64,000 nt of DNA from an uncultured Chloroflexia bacterium (GCA_963787375.1 CAWBCR010000013.1:101654-165653); one strand, 5' to 3'; shown: positions 3,095 to 33,144, numbered from the stretch's first letter. The notes: generated by a model not told the origin, from the sequence alone. A program made the numbers and translations.

Positions 3095-5013
3095 ATGAGC
3101 GGTTTTGCAGTGATCTTCAACCGGGACGGTTCGCCCGTCCCACCGGACAGTCTCGACGCCATTCTGGCGCGCCTCGCCCATCGCGGCCCTGATGGCCGCG
3201 AGGTATGGCAGGCGGGGAACGTGGCGATGGGCCACCTGCATTTCTGGACCACGCCAGAAGATGTTGGCAGCCACCAGCCGCTGTCCGACCCATCGGGCCG
3301 CTTCGTGATCGCGTTCGACGGGCGGCTGGACAATCGCGGCTGACCTGCTGGCTGCGCTCGGCATCGAGAGCAAGCAGGGCGGGCAGATGGCTGACGCCGC
3401 GCTGGCGCTGCAAGCCTTTCTGCGCTGGGGCGATGCGTGTTTCGAGCACCTGCTGGGGCCGCTGGCCGCCGCCATCGTCGACACGGTCGAGCAGCGGGTC
3501 GTGCTGGCGCGTGACGCGCTGGGCAGCCGCTCGGTGTACTATCACCTGGACGAGCACCTGCTGGTGGCGGCGTCGGAGCCGTTCGCGGTGCTGGCGCACC
3601 CGTCCGTTTCGGATGTGCTCGACGAGCGCACGCTGATTCGCTGGTACGCCGTGATGGCCCCGCGTATGGGCGCGACGTTCTTCGCGGATGTGAGTGAACT
3701 GCCCTACGCGCAGGCGATGGCTGTGGATCGGACGCTGGTGCGGCAGTGGCAGCACTGGCAGGTCGACCCGGAGCAGCGGCTGCACTATCGACGCGACGAC
3801 GAATACGCCGAGCACTTCCGCGACCTGCTGACGGAGAGCGTCAGGTGCCGGCTGCGGGCGACAACGCCGGTGGGAGTTTCGTTGAGTGGCGGCTACGACT
3901 CGTCGTCGGTGGCGGCGCTGGCGGCGAAGGAGCTTGCCACGCAGCCTGGCGCGGTGCGGCTGAAGTCATTCACCTGGCTGTTTGACGAACTACCCGAATG
4001 CGATGAGCGGAAATACGCCCAGGCAGTGGTCGATCACTGCGGCCTGGAGTCAGTCGACCATTCCGGGCGCTGACGCCTGGCCGCTGCGCGACTGGCAGAG
4101 CTGGTCGTGCAATCCGAACATGCCGGAAGGCAACGCCTATCGTTTGCTGATTGACCGGCTTTACAGTACAGTGGCGGGCGCAGGCGTGCGCGTGCTGCTG
4201 ACCGGCGCGCATGCTGACCAGGCGCTCACTGGCGGCGACTACTGGCTGGCCGAGCATCTGCGCGATGGGCAGCCGGCTGCCGCGCTGGCGGGTCTGCTGC
4301 GGTTGGTGCGCCGGCAGGGCCTCACCAGCCGGGCAACCCGGACCAGCCTGGTGCAGGTGGTGTCGTGGCTGCTCGATGTGATCCCCGGCGGGCGGCGGGT
4401 CCGCCCAAAGCGCAGGCCGCTGCCGCCGCCGTGGCTGACGCCGCAAGCGCGGGACATTCTCGCGCAGGATATGCTGGCCGACGAGACGCCGCAAGGGCCG
4501 AGGCCGGGCCAGGCAGATGCCATCCTGGGCGGCTACACGACGACGTTCGGCGCGATGTCCGGCGTCTTCGACGGCCTGACAGGCGTCGACACGCGCTATC
4601 CGTACCGCGACCGGCGGCTGGTCGAGTTCCTGATGGCGATACCGGCCTACGAGCTGTTCGATGGCCGGGACCATAAACTTGTGGTTAAGCGGGCCATGGC
4701 GGGCATTCTGCCAGACCTTGTCCTTGACAATCCGGTCCATGGCCGGCTGTACACGCTGTATATGCGCGGCGTGGAGCGCGAGCGGTCCGAATTCGAACGC
4801 ATATTGCACGGGGCTGGCGCGCTGTGGCAGCCATACGTTGAACCGGACGCGCTGTGGCATTCGCTCGATATGGCGCAGAATGGAACGGAGACAGGGCGAA
4901 GTGCCATGCTTCCCTGGTTCTGTGCTGCGGTAGAGATGTGGCGCAGCACAGCAGGCGATAAATCAGCCTGGCATGGCTGGAGGCCACCCAGAGAGACGAT
5001 AGACAGCCTATGA
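3095..5013 (+). pseudogene. Asparagine synthetase B homolog, lasso-peptide cyclase-like (C protein); two frame disruptions as assembled
   Basis: Three colinear pieces (3095-3343, 3387-4073, 3982-5013). The N-terminal Ntn-amidotransferase-like domain starts MSGFAVIF, with Ser where AsnB has the nucleophilic Cys. It has a PP-loop SLSGGYDSSSV. Junctions are near 3335-3345 and 4040-4060. It sits directly upstream of a lasso-type precursor ORF. Confidence 0.8.
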
Positions 5014-5034
5014 ACGATAAACCTCTGAACGAAG

Positions 5035-5202
5035 ATGTGCCCGCCGAAGCAGATGGGCAGAGAACAGCACGCCAAGCGCAAGAAGCCCTATTCAGCGCCG
5101 AGGCTGGAGGTGTATGGCTCGCTGCGCAGCGTCACGCTGGGTGGATCGCCCGGGACCTGGCGATCTGGGCAATCCTACCCTCTACGGGCCAGCAGCCCAT
5201 GA
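5035..5202 (+). CDS. Candidate lasso-peptide precursor (A peptide), 55 aa (49 aa from the alternative ATG at 5053)
   Basis: Own translation, too short for the ORF track: MCPPKQMGREQHAKRKKPYSAPRLEVYGSLRSVTLGGSPGTWRSGQSYPLRASSP. Counting back from the Gly after T-L gives Y-17, P-14, L-12, G-8 and T-2. This exactly matches the YxxPxLx3Gx5Tx lasso leader motif. The core has no Asp/Glu at positions 7-9 as assembled. Confidence 0.55.
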   Translation: MCPPKQMGREQHAKRKKPYSAPRLEVYGSLRSVTLGGSPGTWRSGQSYPLRASSP

Positions 5203-5231
5203 CGGGGCCATGATCCGTATCAGACTGCCGG

Positions 5232-6142
5232 GTGGCGGACATGGGCCAGGCGGCTCGCTATCGCGTCGCCGGGCGCGTGCTGGGCTGCGACAGCCCGCTG
5301 CCGGCGCTGGCCCCATTTCACACAAACGACGAGGAGCCTGGCCTGATGAGCCAGGCTCCATTTGATCTCGACCTGGGGGAGCACCTTGGCACGCGCCGGG
5401 CGACCGGCTGGGTGGCTGAGGAGTGGCGCACGGTGACATGCGCGGCATACGCCGCCGGCTATCGTATCGAGGTGGACGGCGTGGGCCGCTTTGCCGTCAG
5501 CGCCGACGGCAGCCAGATCGTGTGCGAAGAGACGGGCGGGCGAGAGCGTTATTGATGGGCTGCTCGTCGAGACGCTGCTCGGCCCGCCGCTGATCCTCGC
5601 GCTGGCCGCGCAGGGCATCACCTGCCTGCACGCCAGCGCCGTGCTGGTCGATGGGGCGGCGGTGGCGTTTGTGGGCGAGACCGGCGCTGGCAAATCGACG
5701 CTGGCGGCCTACCTGGCGCGGGAAGCGGGCTGGCTGCGGCTGGCCGACGACGTGCTGCCGGTCGCGCTGGGCGGCGCGGGTGGGCCTGCGGCGCTGCCGC
5801 ACTTCCCGCAGTTGAAGCTGCCCGCCGCCGAGCAGGTCGGGCCGGGCGTGCCGCAGCGCATGCCGCTGCGGGCCGTGTACGCGCTGGAGTTCGCCCCCCA
5901 GTGTCGAGACGGCTTCGCTTGAGCCGCTGAGTGGGCACGCCGCCGCCGCTGCGCTGATCGCGCACAGCATGGCCAACAGCCTGTTCGACGAACGGCTGCG
6001 TGCCGCGCACCTGGGAGCCGGCGCATCGGCGGCGGGCGCGCTCGTTGTGCAGCGCCTGATCTACCCGCACCGGCGCGAGGCGCTGCTGGATGTCGCCGCG
6101 CTGCTGGCAGGCACCCTCAGCGCGGGCGGCCCCGTCCGCTGA
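5232..6142 (+). pseudogene. HprK-related (HPr kinase C-terminal-domain-like) kinase; two frame disruptions as assembled
   Basis: N-terminus YRVAGRVLGCDSPLPALAPF, then LHASAVLVDGAAVAFVGETGAGKSTLAAYL (P-loop), then LEPLSGHAAAAALIAHSMANSLFDERL read in a third frame. Shifts are near 5540 and at a C6 run (5894-5899). The 3' end overlaps the convergent nucleotidyltransferase gene by 26 bp. Confidence 0.75.
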
Positions 6143-7274
6143 ACAGCGCCCGCAGCACCTCTCGAATCTGATCCAGCCAGCGAACAATGTAGAACGGCCA
6201 CACAGGCCGGCCTGCCGCGACCGCATAGCGGCGGCGCATGTAGTCCTGTGGCGGAACAGCCACGCGGGCGGCCATCGCCAGGCGATCCGCTGGCGGAAGC
6301 TGGACGAGCCGGCGACGAACCTGGAACCAGCGCGCGCCCTGGCCGCGCAGCCGGTCGACACGGGCCGTGTCCTCGTCGGCGGGGCGGTGCGCGCGGAGCT
6401 GCTCGACCAGACCTGGCGGCAGCGGCGTCTCGAACAGCGCGGCGCAGGTGCTCAGCGCGCGCTCGACCGGGTACGTCCAGCGCAGCGCGGCAGCCTGCTC
6501 GACCGCCAGCGGCCAGTCAGGCGGATCCGCGCAGATCAGCAGGTGTAGGTCGTAGCTGCGCTGGACGTACGTCTCGGCGTGCTGAAGCTCGGCGTGGGCG
6601 CACAGGTAAAGCAGGCTGGCGGTCGGTGTCAGCGTATGGAACTGGCCCCGTGCCGCGCGATACGGCTGCGTCTGCGACCAGAACCAGGCCAGCCCATCCG
6701 GCGACAGTATGCTTTCGTCAACGCTAAGCAGGTGGTGGTGAAGCTCCAGAATCACGGCGCGGGCCGGGCCGCCCATCAGCTGATCATGCTGGCTTCGCTT
6801 GAGGACGAGCGGATCGCCGGGGGCAAACAGGTGCGGGTCGTCGGGGCGGTAGGTGTAGCCCAGCGCGCGGACGGCCTCCAGCGCGTCGGCGCGCCGCGCC
6901 TGCGGAATGAGCACGTCGAGGTCGCTCATGGGACGCAGATCGGGGCGCGGGTAGAGCGTCTGCGCCAGGACGACGCCCTTGATCCACACCGTGTCGATGC
7001 CGGCTGCCTGCAGAACGGCCTCGATTTCCGCCTGCGCGATCTCCAGCGCCGCGTAATGGGCAGCGCTCTGGCGGGCGGACTGCTTCAGTGAGGCTGCGCT
7101 GGCAGCAGGCAGGCTCATGCCGGCCTCGTCGACGCGATGCAGCAGCAGCGGCCCCATGCCGTGCCGGACGGCCAGGCCGGCCAGCGCGGGCCAGCGCTCG
7201 GCGGGTACGGCGTCCGGTGGCAGCCGCCCGGCTACAACGGCAGCAAGCTCCTCAAGCGGAAATAACGAGCCCAT
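6117..7274 (-). CDS. Nucleotidyltransferase-family protein (NTP_transf_5/PF14907-like)
   Basis: ORF 6117-7337. The likely start is MGSLFPLEEL at 7274, 4 nt after the upstream stop. The segment WIKGVVLAQTLYPRPDLRPMSDLDVLIP resembles the catalytic region of the uncharacterised nucleotidyltransferase family that co-occurs with HprK-related kinases. Confidence 0.65.
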   Translation of the reverse strand: MGSLFPLEELAAVVAGRLPPDAVPAERWPALAGLAVRHGMGPLLLHRVDEAGMSLPAASAASLKQSARQSAAHYAALEIAQAEIEAVLQAAGIDTVWIKGVVLAQTLYPRPDLRPMSDLDVLIPQARRADALEAVRALGYTYRPDDPHLFAPGDPLVLKRSQHDQLMGGPARAVILELHHHLLSVDESILSPDGLAWFWSQTQPYRAARGQFHTLTPTASLLYLCAHAELQHAETYVQRSYDLHLLICADPPDWPLAVEQAAALRWTYPVERALSTCAALFETPLPPGLVEQLRAHRPADEDTARVDRLRGQGARWFQVRRRLVQLPPADRLAMAARVAVPPQDYMRRRYAVAAGRPVWPFYIVRWLDQIREVLRALFSGRGRPR

Positions 7275-7278
7275 CGCG

Positions 7279-9054
7279 CTACCGGCCCGGAAGGGTGACG
7301 CTGCCTTCGATGGACAGGTCACCGGGGCAGGTGCCATCGTAAAACGTCACGCGCTGCTCACCGCTGATCACGATCAAGTCCCCCTGCACGGTGATGGTCC
7401 CTGTTATGTCCTCGCTAGTCGTCGCCCGCGCGGCTGAGACGTCGAAGCTGGCGGTGACCGGGTCGTAGGTGCCGAGCAGGAGCGTGCCGTCGATCTGCCG
7501 CAGCAGGCTGATCCGCCGGTCGTTCAGGTTGAAGGTGTAGGTGGCGGTGAAACCTGAGTAGCCGGCGCAGTTGCTGATGTCGGTCGCGTCGATCAGCACC
7601 ACAAACGTGCCGGGCAGCTCCGGCGTCGGCACGGGGCTTGGGAACGCCGTCAGCGGCGTGTCGGGCACGGCGGGGCCTGGCCCGCTTGACACCGGCTGAG
7701 TGCCGATGCCGGTCACCGGCACATCGACCACGACAAACGGCAGCGCGTCAAACTGCGTGGTGGCGACCCAGCCGGTCTGCCCGTCCAGCGTGGCGACGAA
7801 TAGCCACTCGCCGGGATTGTCGCGACCCAGCACGTTGATTACCATCCCCGCCGGCAGGATCGACAGCGCCGCCGCCCCGGCGTCAGGCAGGGCGCGCAGG
7901 TGCGACTCATAGGACAGCGTCACCTGGCCGACGATTCGCGGCGTGGCCGGCGGCGCGGGCGTGGGGAACGCAGTCGGCGGCAGCGGCGTGACGGTGGGCG
8001 TGATCGTCGGCGTCGGGGTACGTGTCGGCGGTGAGTGGTAGCCCGACGGCGCACCTCCCCCTGCCAGGGCGCTCCCCATGAAGCCCACCACCTGGCGGCT
8101 GAACAGCGCAAATGCCCCCAGCAGCAGGCCGCACAGGATGGCGGCCAGCACCGGCAGAAGCCAGCGGCGGTTCGGCGGCTCGATGCGCAGCGGCGGCGGC
8201 TCGTCGTCCAGGATGTCGGGCGGCAGCGCCGCGACCGGCTGGTCAGCCGGAACCTGGAAGACGGCGCAGCCCGCATGATTCGCCGTCAGGCAGGTGCTGG
8301 CCTGGTAGGTCAGCTTGATCGGCTGCGGTACCGCCGGCCTCAGGCAGACATTGCGGGGGAGTAGCACCGCGCCCGTGCGGTCCTCAGCGCCCAGGAAAGA
8401 GCAGTAGCGCGGCTCGACGGGCAGCGGTGGCCGCTGCGGAGTGACGGCCTGCCTGGCGGATGATCCGGGCGGGGAAGGCACATGATCGAAGACATAGACC
8501 TCGGCGTCCCGCTGGAGCATGTCGAGGATGGGGCTGTGGGCGGCGCTCAGCTCGCGCAGGTCGACGTGGCTGGTCACGACGAAGGGAAGTGCATTCCCCT
8601 GGCGATAAGCGATCAAATCCTGAAGCTGCTGCAGTGCTGGGGCGCTCAACTCGACCCACGTGGCGGCAAAGTCGTCGACGATCAACACCGGCGCGCGATA
8701 CAACAGATCGCGCTCGACACCTTCCGGCATCGCGGACAGCAGATCAATGAGACGGCGCAGTGGGAGGAAGACGCCCGGCTGTGCGAGGTGCCCGGCGATG
8801 TACGCGGCCAGCATCGTCCGGCCCGTGCCCACCGCGCCGACGAGTACCAGGCTGCCATGGGGATTCGCGATAAAGGCCTCTGCTGCCCTGAACGCGACAG
8901 CGAACTGCGCGCGCTGGACCGGCGGCAGGCTGTGCGCGACACGCAGAACGTCGTCCCGTGTGAGTGACAGGTAGCGGGCCGGGATGGCACTGATCTGCTG
9001 CGGGTCCCGCGGGCCCGTGTCGCCGGGCTGGTTGTGATCGCTGTCTGCCGTCAT
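7279..9054 (-). CDS. Membrane-anchored P-loop ATPase with 4-Cys motif, single TM segment, Pro/Thr linker, SH3b-like domain and unknown C-terminal domain
   Basis: 591 aa. Walker A GAVGTGRTMLA and Walker B LIVDDF (DnaC/IstB-like AAA). Cys motif YCSFLG...VCLRP...STCLTANHAGCAVF. TM segment WLLPVLAAILCGLLLGAFALF. PTPTITPTVTP linker. GEWLFVATLDGQTGWVATTQF is SH3b-like. Confidence 0.6.
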   Translation of the reverse strand: MTADSDHNQPGDTGPRDPQQISAIPARYLSLTRDDVLRVAHSLPPVQRAQFAVAFRAAEAFIANPHGSLVLVGAVGTGRTMLAAYIAGHLAQPGVFLPLRRLIDLLSAMPEGVERDLLYRAPVLIVDDFAATWVELSAPALQQLQDLIAYRQGNALPFVVTSHVDLRELSAAHSPILDMLQRDAEVYVFDHVPSPPGSSARQAVTPQRPPLPVEPRYCSFLGAEDRTGAVLLPRNVCLRPAVPQPIKLTYQASTCLTANHAGCAVFQVPADQPVAALPPDILDDEPPPLRIEPPNRRWLLPVLAAILCGLLLGAFALFSRQVVGFMGSALAGGGAPSGYHSPPTRTPTPTITPTVTPLPPTAFPTPAPPATPRIVGQVTLSYESHLRALPDAGAAALSILPAGMVINVLGRDNPGEWLFVATLDGQTGWVATTQFDALPFVVVDVPVTGIGTQPVSSGPGPAVPDTPLTAFPSPVPTPELPGTFVVLIDATDISNCAGYSGFTATYTFNLNDRRISLLRQIDGTLLLGTYDPVTASFDVSAARATTSEDITGTITVQGDLIVISGEQRVTFYDGTCPGDLSIEGSVTLPGR

Positions 9055-9135: not shown

Positions 9136-9296
9136 TGCAAAATTCACGAAATCTTCTTCTCCACATAGCGCGCTTTGTGGTACAGTAAGGCTGGATTTAT
9201 CAGACAGAAATGCCCGTATTTATCTTTCTTAACCTTTGGGGGCCCAGATTATGCTGCTTTCCCATTGGAATTATCAGGTCAAGGGGTAAAGGAATC

Positions 9297-10460
9297 ATGG
9301 TTTATAGAGTTTTTGCTGGCCTGCGGGGTCGCTCGATTGAGCGCATCCTGGCAGTTGCCTCGTTTCTGGCGTTGCTGGCGCTGTTTCTGTCGCCGGCTCC
9401 GAGAGCGTTCTCGGAAGAGCTGCCGCCGCCCGAAAATCCGACCTATATTCAGACGAACGCGGCAGGCACCGATATCAGCCGCGGCGACTGGTACACCGCC
9501 GCTGCCGGCGGCGGCCCGGGTGGCTACCAGTATTATGCCATCTACGTGCCGTGCGGCTGGCCGACCAATAAGCCGGTCGATATTGACCTGTACAGCCCCG
9601 AGATGAACCAGAACGCGCTGGGGCTGGCCGATGAGGATGACAACGGCAACATCAACTGGGCCAACCCGACGGCTGCCAACCAGACGACCTTCGAGCTGTA
9701 CAGCCCGGGCACGACCTTTACATCCTATGCGACGCCCGGCCCCGGCGCTGCCGGCAGCCTGATCCAGACCAACTACCTGCCCAGCACCCAGCCCGAGCAG
9801 TGGGTGCGCTTCTACACCATCGACGTCGCCGCGACCGGCTGCGGACAGTACCTCCTGCGCGTAGCCGCTTCTGATGACGACCAGAACGGCTGGCGGCTGC
9901 GCATCGGCGCCGACGACGACAACAATCCCAACAACACCCCGCCGCCACTGGGCTACGACGACGCCGACAATACACCCGGCACCGGCGACGAACTAATCAT
10001 CGGCATGCTGCAGACGGCCTTCCAGCACGACAACGGCGTGCTGACCTGCCTCGACCTGTACCAGTACGTCACCCCCAGCCAGACGTCGGTGACATTCAAC
10101 AACTTTGACTTCGACTACCCCGGTCTGGGCACCGACACAACAGTGACCTATTACTCTCCAAACGGGAGGGTGATAACGGGCACGGCATCGGGCGGCACGG
10201 CCTGGAACAACGGCAGCAACACCACGCGCGGCGGTGATACCTACACCAGCGCCAATGCTGCCTTCGCCAGCGGCTGGTGGCGCATCCGTAGCTGCGTCAC
10301 GAATCACAACCAGTACATTCAGGAAGGCCAGCTTGCGGTGCCGACCTTCTACAAGCAGCCCCCGACGCCGGCCCTGAAGATCGAGAAGACGAACAAGTCT
10401 GTCACGAGGACCAACGGTCAAGTCGATAAGCTACGACATCACGATCACCAACACCTCTAA
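9297..10460 (+). CDS. Giant surface protein, fragment 1: signal peptide + unknown N-terminal domain + start of a DUF11-type repeat
   Basis: ATG 9297 is preceded by AAGGGG/AAGGAA. Signal peptide MVYRVFAGLRGRSIERILAVASFLALLALFLSPAPRAFS. The frame is lost near 10425, where LKIEKTNKSV...SYDITITNTSNVTYTPGE continues in the next frame. Three more shifts occur near 10648, 10692 and 10780. Confidence 0.7.
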   Translation: MVYRVFAGLRGRSIERILAVASFLALLALFLSPAPRAFSEELPPPENPTYIQTNAAGTDISRGDWYTAAAGGGPGGYQYYAIYVPCGWPTNKPVDIDLYSPEMNQNALGLADEDDNGNINWANPTAANQTTFELYSPGTTFTSYATPGPGAAGSLIQTNYLPSTQPEQWVRFYTIDVAATGCGQYLLRVAASDDDQNGWRLRIGADDDNNPNNTPPPLGYDDADNTPGTGDELIIGMLQTAFQHDNGVLTCLDLYQYVTPSQTSVTFNNFDFDYPGLGTDTTVTYYSPNGRVITGTASGGTAWNNGSNTTRGGDTYTSANAAFASGWWRIRSCVTNHNQYIQEGQLAVPTFYKQPPTPALKIEKTNKSVTRTNGQVDKLRHHDHQHL

Positions 10461-10909
10461 CGTGACTTACACACCCGGGGAGGCCAACAGCGTAGTCATT
10501 CGCGACACTCTGCCGGTCAGGGAGCAACGGCGCAACGCCGTCATCTATAATAGCTGCACGGTCAAGCCGCCCTACACCGGCACGTGCACCTACAATGCCA
10601 ACGGTGGCTCGGATCACTACCTCGACATTACCCTTAACCAGGGCATCGAGCGCGGGCGCGACGGCCATCGTCACCCTCAACGTCACGACGAACTGCTGGC
10701 ACACGCACCTACAACAACAGCGCCTGCGTTACCTACACAGATGAGCTCGGCAACCCTTTCCCTTCAACCTGTACGCCACCTTCACCGTCGATAAGCTCCA
10801 GGCGGGTGATACTGTCTGGCTGGACACGGACGGCGATGGCATTCGCGACGTAGGCGAGGCTGGCTTCCCCAACGTCACGCTGCGGCTGTACAACGTCGGC
10901 CCGGACGGC

Positions 10910-12103
10910 GTGCCGGGCGGCGGCGATGACGTGCTGGCGGGCACCACCACCACCGACGCGAACGGCTACTACCTGTTCAACTACACCATACCCGGCACGT
11001 ACTACGTCGACATCGACACCGCGACGCTGCCCGGCGGCGCGGCCCCGTGGACGGCTTCGCCCGGCACCACCGACCCGTCATCGCCGTTTAACCAGAGCGT
11101 CTACCTCGACGCCGACTTTGGCTACGGGGCCAGCCCATCCACCGCTGTGATCGGCGACCTGGTGTGGAGCGATGCCAACAATAACGGCGTCCGCGATCCC
11201 GGCGAGCCTGGCATCAGCGGCGTGACGCTCAACTTGATAGGCCCCGGCCCCGACGGCCTGCTGGGCACCGGCGATGACGTGGTCGTCGCGACGACCACCA
11301 CCAACGACAGCGGCAACTACTACTTCACCGGTGTCACGCCCGGCGAGTACCGGGTCGACGTGACGGACACCGGCGGCAGGCTGGCCGGCTACACCATCAC
11401 AGCGGGCTCACGCGATCCAACGCCGCCCATCACCGTCAACGCCGGCGACAACTACCTGAACGCTGACTTTGGCTACCGCAACACCGGGTTATACACCATC
11501 ACCGAACGTGTGTGGCTCGATACTAACGGCAACGGTGCGCAGGATGCAGGCGAGGTGGGCATTGCGAACGTCTCGGTTAACCTTGTCATCGCCGGCACAG
11601 ATGGCATCTTTGGCACCGCCGATGACCGTGTGATCGCCACCACAATCTCCGCCTCTAACGGCGATTTCACCTTCACCGGCGTGCGCAATGGCGACTACAG
11701 GATCGTGATCGGGGACCGGCATGGCGTGCTCGACGAGTACACCGGCACGACCGCCGATGCTACCAACAAATACCGCAACGTGACTGTCGCTGGTGCGAAC
11801 ATCACCGGCGTCCATTTTGGCTACCACCGCCGGGCACCATCGGCGATACCGTGTTCAGCGACCCGAACAACAATGGCGTGCAGGACCCCGGCGAGCCGGG
11901 CATCGGCGGCGTGTTTGTTGAGCTGTGGCAGGACACCGGCGACGGCGTCTTCAACAGCACAAACGACACGCGGCTCGGAATCACGCGCACGTGGCAGATG
12001 GCACCTATCTTTTCACCGGGCTCATCACCAGCGCCGGTGGCAACCGCTACTACGTGAGCGTTCTGGACAGCACGACGCTCGGCGGTATCAACAACCGATA
12101 TAA
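10910..12103 (+). CDS. Giant surface protein, fragment 2: SdrD-B/Cna-B-like repeats
   Basis: The frame is open from 10745. Repeats have the form GDxVWxDxNxNGxxDxGExGIxGVTxxL...TTTDxxGxYxFxGxxPGxYxV. The sensible reading leaves this frame near 11825 and passes through ORFs 11851-12057 and 11925-12191. Confidence 0.7.
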   Translation: MPGGGDDVLAGTTTTDANGYYLFNYTIPGTYYVDIDTATLPGGAAPWTASPGTTDPSSPFNQSVYLDADFGYGASPSTAVIGDLVWSDANNNGVRDPGEPGISGVTLNLIGPGPDGLLGTGDDVVVATTTTNDSGNYYFTGVTPGEYRVDVTDTGGRLAGYTITAGSRDPTPPITVNAGDNYLNADFGYRNTGLYTITERVWLDTNGNGAQDAGEVGIANVSVNLVIAGTDGIFGTADDRVIATTISASNGDFTFTGVRNGDYRIVIGDRHGVLDEYTGTTADATNKYRNVTVAGANITGVHFGYHRRAPSAIPCSATRTTMACRTPASRASAACLLSCGRTPATASSTAQTTRGSESRARGRWHLSFHRAHHQRRWQPLLRERSGQHDARRYQQPI

Positions 12104-12254
12104 CCAGGACGGGCTGCTCGGCTTTACGCGGACAACTGCTGACAATGAGACAGGCGTGAATGCCTCGGCACCCAGCGGACGATTGTGCTGACGATGCGTC
12201 GCACGCATCAACCTGACTGCCGACTTCGGCTACCGCAACACCAACCTGGTCAGC

Positions 12255-15200
12255 GTGTCGGGCACGGTGTGGAACGACCTCAACGTCAACGCCTACATCG
12301 ACGGCGGCGAGCCGGACCTCAGCAACGTGACGGTCGACCTGCTGGACGCCAAGGGGCGCGTGGTGGCTACCACCACCACCGACGCCAACGGCAACTACAC
12401 CTTCAGCGGCGTGCCGCGCGGCGGGTACACTGTGACGATCACCGACCGGAACCGCGTGCTGAACGGCTTCGAGCTTACCAGCGGCCTCGACAGCATCCCG
12501 GTGGCAGTGTGGACCAGCAACATCACCGGCGTCAACTTTGGCTACGTGCGCCCGCCATACAATGGCAGCATCGGCGACTTCGTGTGGTTTGACTCGGACC
12601 GCGACGGCGTGCAGGATGCCGGCGAAGGCGGCATCTCCGGAGTCACGCTGAACCTGTACAGCACCGGCACCGACGACATCATCGGCAATGGCGATGACGT
12701 GCTGATCGGCACGACCACGACCGACGCCACCGGCCACTACACCTTCGAGGGGCTTGCCCCCGGCAACTACTACGTCGACCCCGACGAGACCACGCTACCC
12801 AGCGGGCTGGCGGCGACGTTCGGGACCGGCGGCAACAGCGGCATGATCAACCTGAGTGCCAGCGAGACGTACGATAAAGCTGACTTCGGCTATGCGTCGT
12901 CGGGCGGCACCGTCGCCCTGGGCGACCGCGTGTGGTACGACGCCGACGGCAACGGCCTTCAGGACCCTGGCGAGGTGGGCATTGGCGGTGTGACCATCAC
13001 CATCACCGGCCCATCCGGCACGTTCCATGTGACCACCCGCCCTGACGGCTCGTGGCTGCAAACGGGCCTCGCGCCCGGCGACTATACCGTCACGGTAGAT
13101 GCCACGAACTTCTCGAGCGGCGTGCTACAGCCTCCCTATAACGCGACGCCGACCAACGGCCCGGTTTCGCGCACGCTGACTGTCCCACCGGGACAGGACG
13201 TGCTGTATGCCGACTTTGGTTTCAACGGCGGCACCGCCGGCACCATCGGCGACACGGTCTTCCTGGACCCCAACGGCAATGGCGTGCAGAATAGCGGCGA
13301 GCCCGGCCTGGCAGACGTGACGCTCAACCTGATCAACCAGACGACGGGTGCGATCATCGCGTCGACCGTCACCGACTCGGATGGGCACTACAGCTTCGTC
13401 GGCGTGCCCGCCGGAACGTACACCGTCCAGGTTACCGACATCAACGGTAAACTGGCCGGGCTGGTCAACTCAACCGTTAACCCCATCACCTCGATTGTGC
13501 TGGCCAGCGGCGCGACGTACAACGACGCCGACTTCGGCTACGTGCCGACCGCCGGCTCCATCGGTGACCTGGTGTGGAACGACATCAACGGCGACGGCGT
13601 GCACGACGCGGGCGAGCCCGGCATCCAGGGCGTCGAAGTCGACCTGTACTTTGACGTAAACGGCGACGGGCTGCTCGACCCCGGTGTGGACAACCTGATC
13701 CGCACCACATACACGGACGTCAACGGCCAGTACGGGTTCGAGGGCCTGCCGGTTGGCTCCTTCCTGGTGGACGTGGTCGAAACCAGCTCTGCGCTGACCG
13801 GCTTCTCAAAGACAACGGGCCCCAATCCGGGCACCAACGACAACAGCCAGTCTGACCCATACGTAGTGGTGCTGACCACTTCTACGTCAATCCGGAACGA
13901 TACGGCAGACTTTGGCTTCCAGGCGACCGGCACCGCCTACTCGATCACCGGCATCACGTTTGAGGACGTGAACAACAACGGTGCCTTCAACAGCGGCACC
14001 GACAAGCCCACCAGTAGCGTCCTGCTGTACCTGTATCGCGATCTGGATGGCGACGGTGTTCTGGACCCCGGCGAGCCGCTCATCGACCAGACTGTTTCGG
14101 GCAGCACCGGGACTGCCGGAGCCTACACCTTCGACGGTCTGCCGAACGGGCACTATATCGTGCAGGCGGACGCCTCGCACTCGATCCTGAATGGCTTCCA
14201 GCAGACGACGCAGACGACTTCGGGTGGTGTGCAGCCGGTGTTTATCAACAACGCCGACTCGGCCAACAACAACCTTGGCTTCTATGCCCCCGGCGGCGCG
14301 CAGACGACGCCCGTCACGCTGTCCTACTTCCACGCCTTCGATCAGGGTGAGACACTGCGTTTCGACTGGTCGACGTCGCTGGAGATTGGCAACGTCGGCT
14401 TCAACCTGTTCGCCAAGGTCGGCGGCGACCTGCGCCCGATCAACGACACGCTGATCGCCTCGCAGGCGGTCGACTCGACCGAGCGGCTGGATTATACCTA
14501 CACGGCCACCGGTGTTGAGGGCAGCACCTTCTACATCCAGGACGTCGACGTGCTGGGCCAGCCACAGATGCATGGACCGTTCGCGCTGGGCCAGGCCAGC
14601 GGCCAGCGTATCGCCCCCGACCCCATCGACTGGGCCAGCATCCAGGCCGAAAACGACAGCCTGGCCGCGCAGCGGCTGGCTGCCGAACGCGCCGCCGCTG
14701 AGGCTCAGGTCGCGCAGGCGCAGCTAAGCGACGGGCACGGGTTTGCCCGCGTGCGCCGCTCAGTTGCAACGGCGCTGGAATGGGTCGGTGGCCTGTTCAA
14801 CGGGAAGCAGGCGGCTGCCGACAGCGGCTACCCGGTCTTCAACCTGACGCTCGACCATACCGGCCTGTATCGCGTCACCTACGAGCAGCTTGCCGCCGCC
14901 GGGCTTGACCTGGACGGCGTGGCCGCCGCGGACATCGCGCTGACGTCTCAGGGCGCAAGCGTGCCCGTCCGCGTGGTGGGCGATCCGTTCGGGCCGGGCA
15001 GCTTCATCGAGTTCTACGGCGAGGCACTCGACACACTCTACACGCACACCAACGTGTACGCGCTGCACGTGGACCACAGCCTGGTGAGCCAGGTGGCGGT
15101 CGACAACACGCCGGTCGATGCAGGCGCGCCGGTTGCCAGCTACTACATGGCGCAGGCCACCTACGGCTCGGACAAGGCGTACTCCTTCAGCTCGCCAAAC

Positions 15201-17639
15201 GGCGACCCGTGGTATGACACGTCGATGCTGGCGCGCACGTCATCCAAGTCGTGGAACTACACCATCGCCGTTGATAACTACGCGGCCAGCGCAGCCCCCG
15301 CTACGTTGGACGTGCAGATGTGGGGCAGCACCGACTGGCCGCAGTCACCCGACCACCGCGTCGTGGTCGGCTTCAATGGCACGAACATCGCCGATCTGAC
15401 CGTCAACGGTATCGTCAACATCCCGGTGACGGCCAATCTACCGGATGGCACGCTGCAATCGGGCAACAACACGCTCAAGGTGACGCTGCCCGGCGATACT
15501 GGCGTGGCATACGACCTGGTAATGTTCGACAAGGCGACGGTGACCTATCCGCGCGGCTTTGTCGCCAAGAACGGCGCGCTGACCTTTGACGGGTCGGCGC
15601 AGGCTTTCCGAGTGACGAACCTGCCCTCGCCTAACGTGACCGTGTACCGCATCGACTCCGACGGCAGCCAGACGCTGCTGGCGGCCAGTGTCGATGGCAG
15701 CGGCGGCTCGTACAGCGCCACCTTCGCCGGCACGTCACATAACGCAACCTACATCGTGACGGCGGACAGCGCTGTGCGCACGCCCGACGTCGTACCCGGC
15801 AGCCAGCCGGTCGACCTGCTTGGCGGCAAGACCGACTTCCTGATCATCGCGCATCCCAACTTCATCGACGGCATCCAGACGCTGGCGCAGGTACGCGCGG
15901 CGCAGGGCCTCAAGGTGCGGGTGGTCAGCGTCGACGACGTGTACGCGCAGTACAGCGGCGGTGTGTTCGACCCGCAGGCCATCCGCGACTACATCAAGGA
16001 CGCGGTGAAGCAGGACGGTGTCAAATACGTGCTGCTGGTCGGCGGTGACACGTACGACTATCTGCACAACACCAGTGCCAGCGCGATCAGCTTTATCCCG
16101 ACTCTGTACGCGCCCACCGACGACCTAGGCATCGTGCAGTATGCGCCGGTCGACCCGCTGTACGCGGACGTGAACGGCGACAACGTACCGGACGTGGCGC
16201 TGGGGCGCTTCCCGGTGCGCACGAACGCCGAGCTTGACAGCATGATCGCCAAGACGCTGGCCTATGAAACCAACGACTACGGGCAGACGGCGGTCTTCGC
16301 CGCCGATATCTACGACGGCTCTGGCGACCAGCCGCTCAACTTCAGCGCTGACAGCGATGCGCTGATCTCGCAGCTTGGCGATGGTTGGTCGGTACAGCGC
16401 GCCTACCTGGACAACAGCAGCGTTGCAGCGGCGCAGGCCACCCTCGTTGATGCGATCAACAACGGCGTGGCGCTGACCAGCTTCATCGGCCACTCGTCGT
16501 ATGACCGCTGGACCTTCAGCGGGCTGTTCAGCATGAACCAGGCGACCGCGCTCACCAATGCGGGGAGCCCGACCATCATCAGCCAGTGGGGCTGCTGGAA
16601 TACCTACTTCGTCTCACCGACGGCCAACACGCTGGGCCACGCCTTCCTGCTCTCCGGCGACCGGGGCGCAGCAGCGGTGATGGGCTCATCGACGCTGACC
16701 GAGGACGCATCGGAGACGGCCCTCGGCCACATCCTGAACCCGTACCTCGTCCAGCCGGGCATGCGCATCGGCGACGCCATTACGCAGGCCAAGGCCGACC
16801 TGGCGGTAACCGACCCGTCGCTGCGCGATGTCTATCTTGGATGGACGCTGCTTGGCGACCCAACGCTGACCGTCGTGCGCGACCCGCACGCCAGCATGGC
16901 CCCGGTGGTCGATGCCGGCGCGAACGTCAGCACCAACATGGGCGACGAAGTGGGCTTCTCCGGTACCGTGCTTGACCTCGACCCTGGCGACAGCACCAGC
17001 GCCGCCTGGGACTTCGGCGACGGCACGACCGGCGGCGACACACTGACCCCAACCCACGTCTACACCTGGCCGGGCGTCTACACCGTCACGTTGACGGCAA
17101 CTGACAGCACCGACAAGACCGGCAGCGACACGCTGACTGTCACCGTGGGCGCGAACGGGGCCACCGTTGCGACCATCCAGCCTAACCCCGGCCTGTCTGC
17201 CGGCGAGGTCATGGTCTATCAGAATGGCTGGGAGACGCTCGACGGCAGCGTGGACGGCGCGGGCCGCCTCGCGGTGCAGCTCGACGCACTCCCGGATGAC
17301 ACGCCGCTGACGGCCCTCTACACCGTCACGCCTGCCCAGGACCTGGCGCTGTGCGGCCCGGCGGGACAGTGCGCCATCACACTGAACGGCGCGCCGGTCG
17401 ACACGACCCGCACCACGGCGGACGATGGCAGCATCGTCTACACGGCGGATAACACGCTGGCGGCAGGCACCGCCACGCTGATCGGGCTGGGGCTTGACCC
17501 CACCGCAGGCGGCGCAGGCGTCGATACGGCGCTCGAACTCCAACACCAACGTGCAGGTCTCGGCGCAGGGCGACATCGCGCAGGTGCTGTCCATGCCCGA
17601 CGGCGACGCGCAGCCGACCGGGATCGTCACCGCGGGTGA
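12255..17639 (+). CDS. Giant surface protein, fragment 3: SdrD-B-like repeats + peptidase C25 (gingipain-like) module with propeptide-like region + PKD domain
   Basis: 1794 aa. About 9 SdrD-B-like repeats come first. The C25-type module runs from GYPVFNLTLDHTGLYRVTYEQLAAAGLDL to LGDPTLTV (14826-16873), with candidate catalytic His (FIGHSSYDRW) and Cys (ISQWGCWNTYF). A PKD domain follows (WDFGDGTTGGDTLTPTHVYTWPGVYTVTLTATD). Confidence 0.8.
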   Translation: MSGTVWNDLNVNAYIDGGEPDLSNVTVDLLDAKGRVVATTTTDANGNYTFSGVPRGGYTVTITDRNRVLNGFELTSGLDSIPVAVWTSNITGVNFGYVRPPYNGSIGDFVWFDSDRDGVQDAGEGGISGVTLNLYSTGTDDIIGNGDDVLIGTTTTDATGHYTFEGLAPGNYYVDPDETTLPSGLAATFGTGGNSGMINLSASETYDKADFGYASSGGTVALGDRVWYDADGNGLQDPGEVGIGGVTITITGPSGTFHVTTRPDGSWLQTGLAPGDYTVTVDATNFSSGVLQPPYNATPTNGPVSRTLTVPPGQDVLYADFGFNGGTAGTIGDTVFLDPNGNGVQNSGEPGLADVTLNLINQTTGAIIASTVTDSDGHYSFVGVPAGTYTVQVTDINGKLAGLVNSTVNPITSIVLASGATYNDADFGYVPTAGSIGDLVWNDINGDGVHDAGEPGIQGVEVDLYFDVNGDGLLDPGVDNLIRTTYTDVNGQYGFEGLPVGSFLVDVVETSSALTGFSKTTGPNPGTNDNSQSDPYVVVLTTSTSIRNDTADFGFQATGTAYSITGITFEDVNNNGAFNSGTDKPTSSVLLYLYRDLDGDGVLDPGEPLIDQTVSGSTGTAGAYTFDGLPNGHYIVQADASHSILNGFQQTTQTTSGGVQPVFINNADSANNNLGFYAPGGAQTTPVTLSYFHAFDQGETLRFDWSTSLEIGNVGFNLFAKVGGDLRPINDTLIASQAVDSTERLDYTYTATGVEGSTFYIQDVDVLGQPQMHGPFALGQASGQRIAPDPIDWASIQAENDSLAAQRLAAERAAAEAQVAQAQLSDGHGFARVRRSVATALEWVGGLFNGKQAAADSGYPVFNLTLDHTGLYRVTYEQLAAAGLDLDGVAAADIALTSQGASVPVRVVGDPFGPGSFIEFYGEALDTLYTHTNVYALHVDHSLVSQVAVDNTPVDAGAPVASYYMAQATYGSDKAYSFSSPNGDPWYDTSMLARTSSKSWNYTIAVDNYAASAAPATLDVQMWGSTDWPQSPDHRVVVGFNGTNIADLTVNGIVNIPVTANLPDGTLQSGNNTLKVTLPGDTGVAYDLVMFDKATVTYPRGFVAKNGALTFDGSAQAFRVTNLPSPNVTVYRIDSDGSQTLLAASVDGSGGSYSATFAGTSHNATYIVTADSAVRTPDVVPGSQPVDLLGGKTDFLIIAHPNFIDGIQTLAQVRAAQGLKVRVVSVDDVYAQYSGGVFDPQAIRDYIKDAVKQDGVKYVLLVGGDTYDYLHNTSASAISFIPTLYAPTDDLGIVQYAPVDPLYADVNGDNVPDVALGRFPVRTNAELDSMIAKTLAYETNDYGQTAVFAADIYDGSGDQPLNFSADSDALISQLGDGWSVQRAYLDNSSVAAAQATLVDAINNGVALTSFIGHSSYDRWTFSGLFSMNQATALTNAGSPTIISQWGCWNTYFVSPTANTLGHAFLLSGDRGAAAVMGSSTLTEDASETALGHILNPYLVQPGMRIGDAITQAKADLAVTDPSLRDVYLGWTLLGDPTLTVVRDPHASMAPVVDAGANVSTNMGDEVGFSGTVLDLDPGDSTSAAWDFGDGTTGGDTLTPTHVYTWPGVYTVTLTATDSTDKTGSDTLTVTVGANGATVATIQPNPGLSAGEVMVYQNGWETLDGSVDGAGRLAVQLDALPDDTPLTALYTVTPAQDLALCGPAGQCAITLNGAPVDTTRTTADDGSIVYTADNTLAAGTATLIGLGLDPTAGGAGVDTALELQHQRAGLGAGRHRAGAVHARRRRAADRDRHRG

Positions 17640-18762
17640 TACCGGCGGCGACGCGACAGCCAGCTTCACGCTCGACAGCACGACGCAGGATGCGCTGTGC
17701 GTGGCCGCCAACGGCTGCTCGATCTTCGCTGGCGACGCCGAGACGCCGCTGGCGACCACCTACACGGCGCAGGACGATGGCAGCGCGCAGTACAGCGCAG
17801 CCCTGACCTTCGAGCCGTACGAGACGAAAGTGCTCACGCTGCGGCCCTACAGCGACACAACTCCGCCGGTCGTCAACTCGTTCGACGTGACGCCGCTCAC
17901 CGTCATGGGTGGGCAGGACGTGACCATCAGCGCCAGCCTGCACGATGACGGCGCGCTGGCCAGCGTCATCGCAACAGTCGACTTCGACGGCACGCAGACA
18001 CCCATCACGCTGACGCCGGTCGACGGGCAGCCGGGCAGCTTCCAGGCGACCTGGACCGCGCCCGATGGCGGCAACGGTGCCTTCAGCATGACGCTCGAAG
18101 CGCAGGACGCGACCGGCAATACTGCGACCAGCGATCCGATCAGCGGCGTGGTCGACAGCGAACCGCCGGCGCTCACCGGGCTGGTGGTCGACGCTGCGAA
18201 CTTCGACGGCGATGTGCCGCTCACCGCGCCGGGCGACTGCCTGACCTATCACGTGACCGCCGAGGACACGCTCAGCGGCGTGGCAGCGGTCACTCTGACC
18301 ATCACCGGGCCGGATGGGTCGACCAGCGACGTGGCGCTGACCTACGACGAAACCGCCGCAGAGTATAGCGGCCAGGTCTGCACCACCGCCGAAAGCCCGA
18401 CCGGCGACTACACCGCAGCCGTCCAGATCGCCGACGCGGCGGGCAATACCGCCAGCGCCGACGGCGGGACGTTCAAGCTGCTGACGCCACTGAGCGTCAC
18501 GCTGGGGCCGGACCAGTCGGCGGGCGTGGGCGAAGACGTGGCATTCAGCGCGACCATCGACAACGCCGACCCGAACGAGACGTACACCATCAACTGGGAC
18601 TTCGGTGACGGCGGCACAGCGGACGGCTCGCTCGACGCGACGCACGCCTACGCCGATGCCGGCAGCTACACGGTGACCGTCAGCGTGACGGACTCGCATG
18701 GCGGCAGCGGATCGGCCACGCAGACCGTAACCGTAGCCGACGCGCCCGCCGATCAGCCTTGA
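17494..18762 (+). CDS. Giant surface protein, fragment 4: Ig-like domains + PKD domain
   Basis: It continues fragment 3 after a shift near 17520. It contains beta-rich Ig-like modules (TPPVVNSFDVTPLTVMGGQDVTISASLHDDG...) and a PKD domain (INWDFGDGGTADGSLDATHAYADAGSYTVTVSVTDSHGG). Confidence 0.7.
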   Translation: MTPPQAAQASIRRSNSNTNVQVSAQGDIAQVLSMPDGDAQPTGIVTAGDTGGDATASFTLDSTTQDALCVAANGCSIFAGDAETPLATTYTAQDDGSAQYSAALTFEPYETKVLTLRPYSDTTPPVVNSFDVTPLTVMGGQDVTISASLHDDGALASVIATVDFDGTQTPITLTPVDGQPGSFQATWTAPDGGNGAFSMTLEAQDATGNTATSDPISGVVDSEPPALTGLVVDAANFDGDVPLTAPGDCLTYHVTAEDTLSGVAAVTLTITGPDGSTSDVALTYDETAAEYSGQVCTTAESPTGDYTAAVQIADAAGNTASADGGTFKLLTPLSVTLGPDQSAGVGEDVAFSATIDNADPNETYTINWDFGDGGTADGSLDATHAYADAGSYTVTVSVTDSHGGSGSATQTVTVADAPADQP

Positions 18763-19448: not shown

Positions 19449-22400
19449 CTACGGAGTCACGATCAGCGTTGGGTCGCCCAGGATCGTCCACTGCTGGAAG
19501 ATGTCTGTCCAGTACGGCGCAGTGCGGGCCAGGTCGGCCTTGGCGGCCTGTACCGCCTGCCCGATGCTCGTGCCGGGCTGCCCCAGGTGATCCATCAGCA
19601 GGTTGCCGAACTGCTGCTCAGCGTTGGCAATGCCCAGCGTCGGCGTGCCCATCAGCGCCGCAGCGCCGTGGTCGCCCGAGAGCAGGAAGGCGTAAGCCAG
19701 CGTGTTGTCGTCGGGCTGCACGAAGTACGTCCCCCAGCAGTTGAAGTCGGCGACTACCGTCGGACGCCCGGCGTTGGTCAGGGCCAGCGCGTCGCCCGCG
19801 TTGAACAGCCCACTGTATGACCACCGATCCACCGCGCCGTGCCCCATATAGCTGGTCAGCGCGACCCCGCCGTTGATGGCGTCGATCAGCGCAGCGTGCG
19901 CGGTCGCCACATCGGTGTCGTCGAGGTAATCGCGCTGGACGGTCCAGTCACTGCCCAGGTAGGTGATGAAGCCGTCGCTGAAGTTATTCCACCACAGCCA
20001 CTCGCCGGACTGGACCTTGTCGGCGGCGAAGATGGCCGTGTTGGCGTAATCCTTGCTGCCGTAGGCCAGTGTCTTGCCGACCAGCGTATTCAGCTCGGCC
20101 TGCGTGCGCACCGGGAAGCGGCCCAGCGCCACGTCGGGCATGTTGTCGCCGTTCACGTCTGCGTACAGCGGGTCGGAGGGCGCGTAGCGGATTTCGACGA
20201 AGCTGGTCGGCGCGTACAGCGTCGGGATGTAGCTGACCGCATTCGGGTACTGATAGCGGTGGTAGTCGATGGTGTCGCCACCGACCAGCAGCACAGCCTT
20301 GACGCCCATGTTATTGACCGCGTAGGTGATGTAATCATGGATGGCCTGCGGGTCGAACACGCCGCCACTGAACTGCGCATACACGTCGGCTGCGTCGACC
20401 ACCCGCACGCTCATGCCCTGCGCCTGGCGGGCCTGCACCAGCGGCTGGATGCCGTCGATGAAGTCCGCATGCGAGATGATGAGGAAGTCGGTGGTGCCGC
20501 TGGTGATGTCTGCCGCCGGGCGGGCCGCTGCGATAGCGGGCGTGTTCAGCGAGCCGGCGGCGCTGACGACGTACCGGTCATTGGCTGCCGTGCCGGGGAA
20601 GGTGACGCTGTAGCTCGCACCGTCTGGCTCGACCAGCGCGCCGGCCAGCCGCGTCATGCCGGACCCGTCCAGCCGGTAGACCAGCACATCAGGCGAAGGC
20701 AGGTTGGTCACGCGGAAGGCCTCGCCGGAGGCGGTGAAGGACAGCCCGCCACCGCGCGCCACGAACGCACGCGGGTAGGTGATGGCAATGCTCTCAAGGT
20801 TCACAATCTCGTAGTCGACGCCGCTGTCGCCGGGCAGCGTCAGCGCCACCGCGTTGTCGCCGTCGTGCAGCGCATCTGCCGTCAGTGAGACGTCGACCGG
20901 CTGGCTGCCGAGGCCGTTGAACATCTGGTCGGCAACGGTTGCGCTGTTCAGCGCGATCACCACGTGGTGGTCAGGCGTGGCGGGCCAGTCCGTGCCGCCG
21001 TACATCTGCACCGCCAGCGAGGCGGGCGCTGCGCCCGCGACGAGGTTGTCGACGCTCAGGTTGAAGATCCAGTTCTTCGAAGTCTTGTAGACCAGCATCT
21101 GCTGCGCGTACCAGGGGTCGGCCAGCGGCGAGGAGAACGTGTAGCCGTGGTTCTCGTCGTAGGTGGCGGTCTCTTCGTAGCTGGCCGTCAGGGCTGCGCC
21201 GGGCTGCGCGCTGGTTAAGTTGACCGAAGCGTGGCTGGCCAGCCCACCGTTCACCTGAAGCTCATAGACGTTTGCGTCGGTGTACAGGCTGTGCGCGGCC
21301 TGGCCGTAGAAGACGATGCTTGAGCCCAGCCCGAACACATCGCCGCCGATCATGTCGACGGGGATGCTGGCACCGCGCGCCGTTAGTGCGATGCTGCTGG
21401 CCGGCACGCCGGCCAGATCGAGGCCCGCTGCCTGCAGGTCTTCATATGTGACTTGGTACAGCCCGTCGGCGCTAACCCGCAGGTCGTACGTCGGATAGCT
21501 GATGTTAGGGTCGGCAGGCGGAACATCGGGCAGTGGCGTATCGGTGACCACATCGACGGCGACAGTGACGAGCGCGACATTGGAGACCGCGCCGCTGTCG
21601 TCCTGAACCGTGTAGGAGAACGTGTCGTCGCCGGGCGTGCCCGCATCGGGTGTGTACGCGACAAGCCCACTGTCCAGGTCGACCGCCGCCGTGCCAAGTG
21701 CCGGCGTGCCGACGATGGTGACCGTCGCCGGGTCAAGCTGGCCGCTGGCGGCGATGTCGTTGGCGAGCACGTTGATGTCCACCGAGGCATTCTCGTCGAC
21801 CGAGGCGCTGTCGTCCACGGCGGTTGGTGCGGAGCTGTCGGCGGGCGGTGCCAGGGGCGTGCCGACCGTAATGGTCACCGTGGCGACGTTCGATACAGCG
21901 CCCTGCTTATCGGTGATGGTGTAGGTGAAGCTGTCTATGCCGGAGAAACCGCGACTGGGCGTGTAAGTCGCGACAGCCTTCTTGTTCACCGAAACCCTAC
22001 CGTTGGCCGGCGGCGTGATGATGCTGACCGACTTCAGGTTGAGGCTATCGCCGGAGTCAGTTTCCTGGTCGTTGTCGGCCACGCTGATCCTGACAGATGT
22101 CCGGACGTCCGTGACGGCGCTGTCGTCATTGGCAATGGGCGGCGTCACGGGCGGAGCTGGCTCGACGGTGATGGTGACGGTCGCAATATTGGAGGTCGCG
22201 TCGTGCTTGTCGTTGACGATATAGGTGAAGCTGTCCTCGCCCGTGAAGTCGGGGTTGGGCGTGTAGGTCACGATACCTTTTGTCATGTTCAGCGAGATGC
22301 TGCCATCTGCCGGGTCGCTCACGATGATGACCGTCTTGACGTTGACCGTGTCCCCATGGTCGGGGTCCTGGTCGTTGGCCGTCACGTCGATGCTGACCGC

Positions 22401-22598: not shown

Positions 22599-22702
22599 TT
22601 GTGTCCCCGCAGTTCTCTGTCTGATGTGCTGTGTGCTATGGGTTCTCGGACCCAATCCGCCTTCGGCATGCTTCTCGTGTTATGTTCTAAGCGTAAACGA
22701 AA

Positions 22703-27642: not shown

Positions 27643-27660
27643 GACCCACCTCATTCGCGT

Positions 27661-28689: not shown

Positions 28690-28698
28690 GGTTGCCTC

Positions 28699-30901: not shown

Positions 30902-30936
30902 GATGTCGCTGCTCCTCTCGCCGGCGATAGCGCGCT

Positions 30937-33135: not shown

Positions 33136-33144
33136 GCTGGCCTC

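Follow-up and report, generated by a model that had tools for sequence, protein, structure and literature searches.

The closest described relatives of the locus considered here, a lasso-peptide-like gene set at positions 3095-7274 of a 64,000-nucleotide stretch of DNA from an uncultured Chloroflexia bacterium (GCA_963787375.1, CAWBCR010000013.1:101654-165653; the whole stretch analysed is called the window below), are the pseudomycoidin cluster psmCAKB1B2ND of Bacillus pseudomycoides (PMC6993621) and the paeninodin cluster of Paenibacillus dendritiformis. All of them begin with genes for a cyclase (C), a precursor peptide (A) and a kinase (K), and they have in common an HprK-like kinase, a YxxP leader and a lasso peptide of class II whose ring is closed from Gly/Ala1 to Asp/Glu. 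PsmK phosphorylates the peptide and PsmN attaches a hexose to the phosphate (PMC6993621; PMC9266682), the phospho-acceptor of paeninodin-type precursors being the C-terminal Ser (PMC9266682). B1 and B2 are dispensable for pseudomycoidin in heterologous hosts (PMC6993621). A cluster from Stanieria cyanosphaera PCC 7437 (PMC6993621), likened here by its description, has a cyclase, a precursor and a PsmK-like kinase with no B gene, as in the window; there a conventional glycosyltransferase is found, whereas the window has a PF14907 protein and a loss of the B genes from a position that its relatives define. The kinase and nucleotidyltransferase (N) module, together with a YxxP-type leader, is shared also with the clusters of linear polyphosphorylated peptides (LPP; PMC13381572) and with the HprK-related kinase A/PqqD system (TIGR04352), which, like the window locus, often lie among cell-envelope or polysaccharide genes. 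[quoted passage not shown]

On comparison with these systems, we conclude that the locus is most probably a recognisable class II lasso-peptide cluster of the kinase- and nucleoside triphosphate (NTP) transferase-tailored (paeninodin/pseudomycoidin-like) type, one that has lost B1 and B2 and not one that has gained a function. It is a derived B-less version, possibly dead, of a kind of system already known; earlier work covers the general architecture, shows that B1/B2 can be dispensed with and describes C-A-K clusters that have no B genes (PMC6993621). The locus is not self-sufficient: as assembled, lasso formation is impossible, and if the breaks in its reading frames are errors, it requires B1/B2 from elsewhere or manages without them. 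Open reading frame (ORF) listing and three-frame translation gave the order C, A, K on the forward strand, followed by N on the opposite one. In contrast to the pseudomycoidin cluster, B1, B2 and the ATP-binding cassette (ABC) exporter (D) are missing, N runs convergently instead of co-directionally, a C-terminal Ser is lacking in the precursor (a difference from paeninodin as well), the host belongs to Chloroflexota and not to Bacillota, and genes for an SH3 membrane protein and for a giant C25 surface protein are linked to the cluster. The clade of this lasso locus is known so far only from Anaerolineae-type Chloroflexota metagenome bins.

The lasso cyclase gene, for an Asn-synthetase-like macrolactam synthetase, occupies 3095-5013 (+ strand). 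Interrupted near 3340 and again near 4055, it is spread over three frames, and its corrected product is about 638 amino acids long. The best family for each of the pieces was NF033535 (lasso peptide isopeptide bond-forming cyclase), and the frame-corrected protein scored 372.7 bits on this model in comparison to 195.9 bits on asparagine synthase (TIGR01536). A housekeeping AsnB identity, considered in the initial annotation as one of the outcomes that would refute its proposal, is thus rejected. The score is below the curated NF033535 cut-off of 525, and the intact homolog from locus L001 likewise stays below it (362 bits). A profile built from 120 homologs aligned to C at positions 1-81, 82-317 and 315-611 in three consecutive frames. 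Altogether 719 homologs were found, the nearest of which are located in lasso clusters, and C is 49-53% identical to the nearest ones (P0001-P0005). The description of C as an AsnB-type enzyme with Ser in place of the glutaminase Cys and with an intact PP-loop was borne out: Ser2 is present in all 94 homologs covering that position, and the SGGxDS motif, intact in the window, is conserved as well.

The precursor gene A lies at 5053-5213 (+ strand), its leader ending with Thr-Leu at 5134-5139 and its core beginning at 5140; as assembled, the ORF has 49-55 codons, starting at 5035 or 5053 and ending at 5202. The leader, YSAPRLEVYGSLRSVTL, matches YxxPxLx3Gx5Tx exactly when read directly, as had been noticed before, and it passes the lasso leader model NF033521 (24 bits, cut-off 19). 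In addition, tblastn with the precursors of L003 and L004 matched A with an E value of 1e-8. The assembled core, GGSPGTWRSGQSYPLRASSP, holds no Asp or Glu. At the core, the next frame reads GGSPGTGDLGNPTLYGPAAHDG..., and removal of one base near 5157 gives GGSPGTGDLG..., with Asp8 restored as in the homologs; the frame-corrected core is GGSPGTGDLGNPTLYGPAAHDGP, about 23 amino acids. The single-nucleotide insertion near 5157 thus falls inside the ring-coding part and takes the conserved ring-forming Asp8 out of frame. A second insertion in A is presumed within the GGGG stretch near 5205, and only its removal leads to a stop codon.

Homologous cores support the corrected reading of the ring. They start with GGSPGAGDSG, GGSPGVGDSG, GGSPGGGDSG, GSSSGIGESG, GSKPGIGDSL, GSPAGSGDSA, GPSIGVADVS and, in L012, GGTGRNPEQQ. 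The pattern G-x-x-x-G-x-[GA]-[DE] holds for seven of the eight, and the window core conforms to it only in the +1 frame. The exception, L012, keeps Gly1 and Glu8 and differs at the positions between (GGTGRNPEQQ...), and so Gly1 and Asp/Glu8 are found in all eight. The C-terminal residues of these cores are F, P, G, G, P, I, P and P; the window core ends in ...SSP as assembled and in ...DGP when corrected.

The state of the core bears on a different explanation, in which the product is a linear, LPP-like phosphorylated peptide and not a lasso, the assembled core GGSPGTWRSGQSYPLRASSP being the real substrate of K and N. We consider this very improbable. The assembled core does lack a ring acceptor and has a Ser-rich C-terminus, K together with N is found in the LPP family too (PMC13381572), and an LPP-like K-N-RRE-SpI locus is present in related bacteria: L013 (4751-11182) carries two PqqD genes, two radical-SAM genes (one with SPASM), an SpI-like ORF, K and N but no cyclase, and on its Chloroflexota-type metagenome contig it looks like an LPP-type RiPP cluster. 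However, the window has a cyclase gene and none of the components that define LPP clusters, as neither the SpI peptidase nor the RRE was found in the window and the MsbA-like exporter was not found near the locus. Moreover, at the nucleotide level the conserved ring sequence of the clade comes back in the alternative frame, which makes the assembled tail a product of the frameshift, and K itself is frame-broken too.

The kinase gene (5232-6142, + strand) encodes an HprK/PEPCK-fold P-loop kinase (ScmC-like) of about 300 amino acids in three frames, with breaks near 5540 (a GGG run) and 5895 (a C6 run). Its profile aligned at positions 12-111, 118-230 and 235-302 across the three frames, the P-loop GETGAGKST and an ADD motif are present, and homologs are assigned to PF27840 (ScmC family). 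Sequence matches to HprK-type models (TIGR04352, TIGR04249) were weak, and sequence searches against PDB gave P-loop matches only; the fold was placed through the predicted structure. The AlphaFold model (58 sequences; predicted local distance difference test, pLDDT, 93) matched HprK/P and ATP-PEPCK in Foldseek with a probability of 1.0, which agrees with the proposed HprK-related kinase.

The nucleotidyltransferase gene N (6117-7274, - strand; 385 amino acids) is intact and converges on K with a 26-bp 3' overlap. Both this overlap and the PF14907 identity (E 6e-44) had been given correctly in the initial annotation. N is 100% identical to P0121, matches the corresponding proteins of L001, L003 and L004 in a single frame (47-53% identity) and has a conserved DLD (DxD) motif. 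Its model (pLDDT 89) matched the Pol-beta-type nucleotidyltransferases MenT1, LnuA and ANT(2'')-Ia (5cfs, 4xje), and also FKRP. The two ANT(2'')-Ia entries are the same distant PDB relatives as those of the (uncharacterised) NTP transferase of the pseudomycoidin cluster, having been reported for PsmN as its structural relatives (PMC6993621).

Neither B1 nor B2 is to be found in the window. B1, a PqqD-like RRE (PF05402), and B2, a transglutaminase-like leader peptidase (PF13471), were absent from every frame of the 64 kb: tblastn with B1/B2 from three related loci gave no match, and family hidden Markov models, derived from seven sequences of B1 and four of B2 in related loci, gave nothing better than E=1 against all six-frame pieces. 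The missing B1/B2, claimed earlier for 5 kb around the locus, therefore holds for the whole window, and no pair hidden within the interval was found in the assembled sequence. An ABC exporter is likewise missing among the neighbours within 5 kb, which are PfkB, GH4, Amidohydro_2, the SH3 membrane protein and a giant SdrD_B/C25 protein. As close relatives carry no exporter in their clusters either, its absence is a trait of the clade.

The position from which the B genes were lost can be defined by comparison. In L001, L003 and L004 the order is C-A-K forward, N converging on K, B1 (PqqD)-B2 (Transglut_core3) forward, and then the SH3 gene converging, with a giant SdrD_B/Peptidase_C25 protein adjoining the cluster. 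In these three nearest relatives the B1-B2 pair thus sits between N and the SH3 gene, while in the window direct reading shows 4 bp there (cgcg, 7275-7278) between the SH3 gene stop (7279) and the N start (7274). We therefore place the loss of B1/B2 at this junction. The SH3 gene (7279-9054, - strand), whose membrane-protein product combines a degenerate, DnaC/IstB-like P-loop domain with one transmembrane segment and SH3_3 (identified by SH3_3 and IstB/AAA matches), is syntenic in L001, L003, L004 and L018. It is intact, with the profile aligned over positions 94-675 of 680; the first ~93 residues are missing, a region that corresponds to the CxxC...CxC Cys-rich part seen in L001, L003 and L004. 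Its Walker A motif is GTGRT, without the lysine, as in homologs, and judging from this the protein is probably not an active ATPase.

Among related loci with gene context, five (L001, L003, L004, L012 and L020) possess C, A, K and N together with B1 and B2, and their cyclases are 30-53% identical; in L012 and L020 the gene orders are different. L015 is the same as L003, and L005 the same as L004 (both from the Anaerolineae metagenome-assembled genome GCA_016928235), and each pair was counted once. Cyclase, K and N of L001, L003/L015, L004/L005, L018 and L020 are 41-53% identical to those of the window. These Anaerolineae loci and the window are alike in the precursor leader, in the ring consensus GGSPGxGDSG, in the giant C25 neighbours and in having no exporter gene; the SH3 protein is shared too, the L020 contig being the one where it was not seen, and L001, L003, L004 and L018 show the same convergence of K and N. 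They differ from the window in that B1 and B2 are present in L001, L003, L004 and L020 (B1 only in L018), in that the genes are uninterrupted, and in that L001 and L003 carry LytR_cpsA_psr upstream of C, the place taken by the amidohydrolase in the window.

These relatives also bear on two proposals made in the initial annotation. The locus had been put forward as the best candidate for an undescribed system in the window, but L001, L003 and L004 hold the same C-A-K, N and SH3 genes plus B1-B2, and both tailoring by K and N and B-less C-A-K clusters have already been published. It had further been proposed, as one of three options, that the PF14907 nucleotidyltransferase and a P-loop ATPase substitute for the missing RRE and protease functions. 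The only point in favour is that N, K and the SH3/P-loop protein are co-located in a B-less locus, and we regard this option as having very little chance of being correct. All three proteins occur beside B1 and B2 in L001, L003 and L004 with no complementary distribution, hence they are not replacements for the pair, and L018, which is without B2, is also without the P-loop domain of the SH3 protein. Furthermore, the Walker A lysine is replaced in the SH3-protein family, and the N model has a Pol-beta-type nucleotidyltransferase fold like that of ANT(2'') and LnuA, not that of a protease or RRE.

As to whether B-less loci recur, the comparison of eight independent loci, two of them on short contigs, showed that B-deficient ones do. 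In L018, C, A, K, N and B1 are intact, the B2 gene is missing, and B1 and SH3 are 15 bp apart; its SH3 protein (within 14407-15879) lacks the N-terminal P-loop domain (390 amino acids versus ~680). L006 has a cyclase, a precursor, an RRE (B1) and a kinase, with no B2 on its short contig, and its N (4312-5967, + strand), a PF14907 protein, is joined at its C-terminus to a signal peptidase I domain of the archaeal type (TIGR02228, E 1.9e-10), which may be an alternative leader peptidase. In L019, also on a short contig, a phage-type integrase gene (5518-6606) stands directly after C-A-K, where N and B1/B2 are expected, and this suggests that the cluster was disrupted by a mobile element. The shortness of the L006 and L019 contigs makes the absence of B genes there weak evidence.

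Such loci raise the question of a lasso pathway that is naturally independent of the B genes, or uses an alternative protease, so that the frame breaks would be technical and the cluster would work without B1/B2. The leader might then be removed by a general protease, an SpI-like enzyme or the neighbouring C25 peptidase. The intact genes and the missing B2 of L018 fit with this explanation, as do the fusion of N to an SpI-like domain in L006, the tightly coupled, intact N and SH3 genes of the window, the Stanieria C-A-K cluster described above, and the production of pseudomycoidin without PsmB1/B2 in E. coli and B. subtilis (PMC6993621). However, B1 and B2 are kept in 5 of the 8 independent relatives, the YxxP...T-x motif by which B1/B2 recognise the leader is still complete in the window, an SpI-like sequence was not found there, the C25 protein is a predicted surface protein, and two of the B-deficient contigs are the short ones. 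We therefore consider such a pathway unlikely. In its extended form, maturation in the whole clade would be independent of the canonical B2, and here of B1 too, with another protease removing the leader; the peptide would act together with its SH3, C25/SdrD and LytR-type neighbours instead of being an exported antibiotic, and the window and L018 would be working B-deficient examples. This also seems doubtful to us.

Returning to a cluster that lost its B genes, the next question is whether the remaining genes are alive. Four frame disruptions in three genes had been counted earlier; the actual number is six, two each in C, A and K (near 3340, 4055, 5157, 5205, 5540 and 5895). All six are consistent with a +1 extension of a short G/C run, and after correction no in-frame stops remain. 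The breaks extend beyond the cluster. The upstream amidohydrolase is split near 1955, with Pfam positions 73-232 and 232-289 in different frames, and the giant gene has many breaks at 10.4-12.2 kb, including about three within 60 nucleotides (12170-12210), and another near 17.5 kb. In total, there are at least 13 breaks in 1.9-18.8 kb and about one in the remaining 45 kb, where only the ABC permease near 39.47 kb looks split. A uniformly poor assembly was rejected, as twenty genes in 25.9-57.7 kb are full length with end-to-end Pfam matches and the breaks are local; at 23.5, 24.3 and 48.8 kb, where frameshifts had been suspected, one gene simply ends and the next begins. N and the SH3 gene, which together take up 2.9 kb flanked by broken genes, have no breaks, whereas about 5-6 would be expected there at the density of the flanking genes (p ~0.003, our own Poisson estimate).

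These observations point in two directions. A technical error or a very recent origin is favoured by the fact that all the breaks are single-base, that there are no nonsense codons, that K retains 52 of the 53 columns conserved at 80% or more (more than any of its 57 homologs), and that neutral decay would not leave patches as uneven as those in the giant gene. Real decay is favoured by the sparing of N and the SH3 gene, the loss of B1/B2, the truncated SH3 N-terminus, and the conservation in C, where no more than 146 of 182 conserved columns are retained, which places it at the 4th percentile among homologs. With evidence on both sides, we rate consensus error and recent decay alike. It is quite possible that the breaks are consensus errors and that the leader, still canonical, is processed by B1/B2 encoded elsewhere in the genome. 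It is also a realistic possibility that inactivation of the lasso genes is recent and that selection still acts on N and the SH3 gene. That leader removal in this clade is independent of B2 appears improbable. Processing in trans and decay had both been offered as options in the initial annotation, and on this sequence alone they are about equally plausible.

By homology, the pathway might run as follows. The YxxPxL...T-x leader of A would be bound by the PqqD-like RRE (B1), and the transglutaminase-like Cys protease (B2) would cleave after Thr-Leu. C would then adenylate Asp8 and link it to Gly1, giving an 8-residue macrolactam ring; K would phosphorylate the peptide, and N may, like PsmN, extend the phosphate by another group. 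In the window, the B1-B2 pair is gone from between N and SH3, and C, A and K each carry two one-base insertions.

Several points weigh against the assignment of the locus to a kinase/NTP-transferase-tailored cluster that lost its B genes. A C-terminal Ser, the paeninodin-type phospho-acceptor, is present in none of the eight clade precursors nor in the window core, and for this reason both the phosphorylation site and the phosphorylation of the peptide itself are only putative. K reaches no curated family cut-off, scoring 25.1 bits as compared to the 200 set for TIGR04352, the model of the HprK-related kinase A/PqqD system, from which the window differs also in having no PqqD gene. The likeness of N to PsmN is a presumed one, drawn from the published description and the shared PDB relatives 5cfs and 4xje. 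The search for B1/B2 covered the 64-kb window, and a pair acting in trans from elsewhere in the source genome would be beyond its reach. Finally, eight independent related loci with context make a small sample; genome and metagenome scans with the N alignment yielded 7 and 3 loci, mostly already known, and the neighbourhood sample stayed small.

If the cluster works, it would be a case of natural lasso formation without linked B1/B2, so far shown only in heterologous hosts, for pseudomycoidin. If it is a relic, it represents ordinary erosion of a biosynthetic gene cluster, and it would caution that deletions and local assembly errors can mislead genome mining whose rules demand or exclude B genes. 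The clade as a whole is unusual in that its kinase cannot use the usual C-terminal Ser, that it has no exporter, and that cell-surface genes are always linked to it. Such features point towards a function different from that of a secreted antibiotic.

The gene for the giant SdrD_B/Peptidase_C25/PKD surface protein of the window lies at 9210-18762 (+ strand), as delimited by Pfam matches and by tblastn with homologous giant proteins, and has many frame breaks. A giant SdrD_B/Peptidase_C25 protein stands beside the lasso cluster in every related locus with enough flank (L001, L003, L004, L006, L018 and L020), and an SH3_3 membrane protein adjoins the cluster in the window, L001, L003, L004 and L018. 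This link across loci whose cyclases are 35-53% identical suggests a functional tie to the cell envelope. Other cell-envelope genes are sometimes near, namely LytR_cpsA_psr (L001, L003, L019), Wzz (L004) and a glycosyltransferase (L003). In the window, the cell-surface neighbourhood comprises 9210-18762 (+) and 19449-22655 (-).

Further along the window, at 26755-33678 (- strand), there is an intact alternative complex III-type operon with ActD, NrfD-like, molybdopterin-oxidoreductase-like, 4Fe-4S and multihaem cytochrome c genes, which fits a Chloroflexota-type organism.

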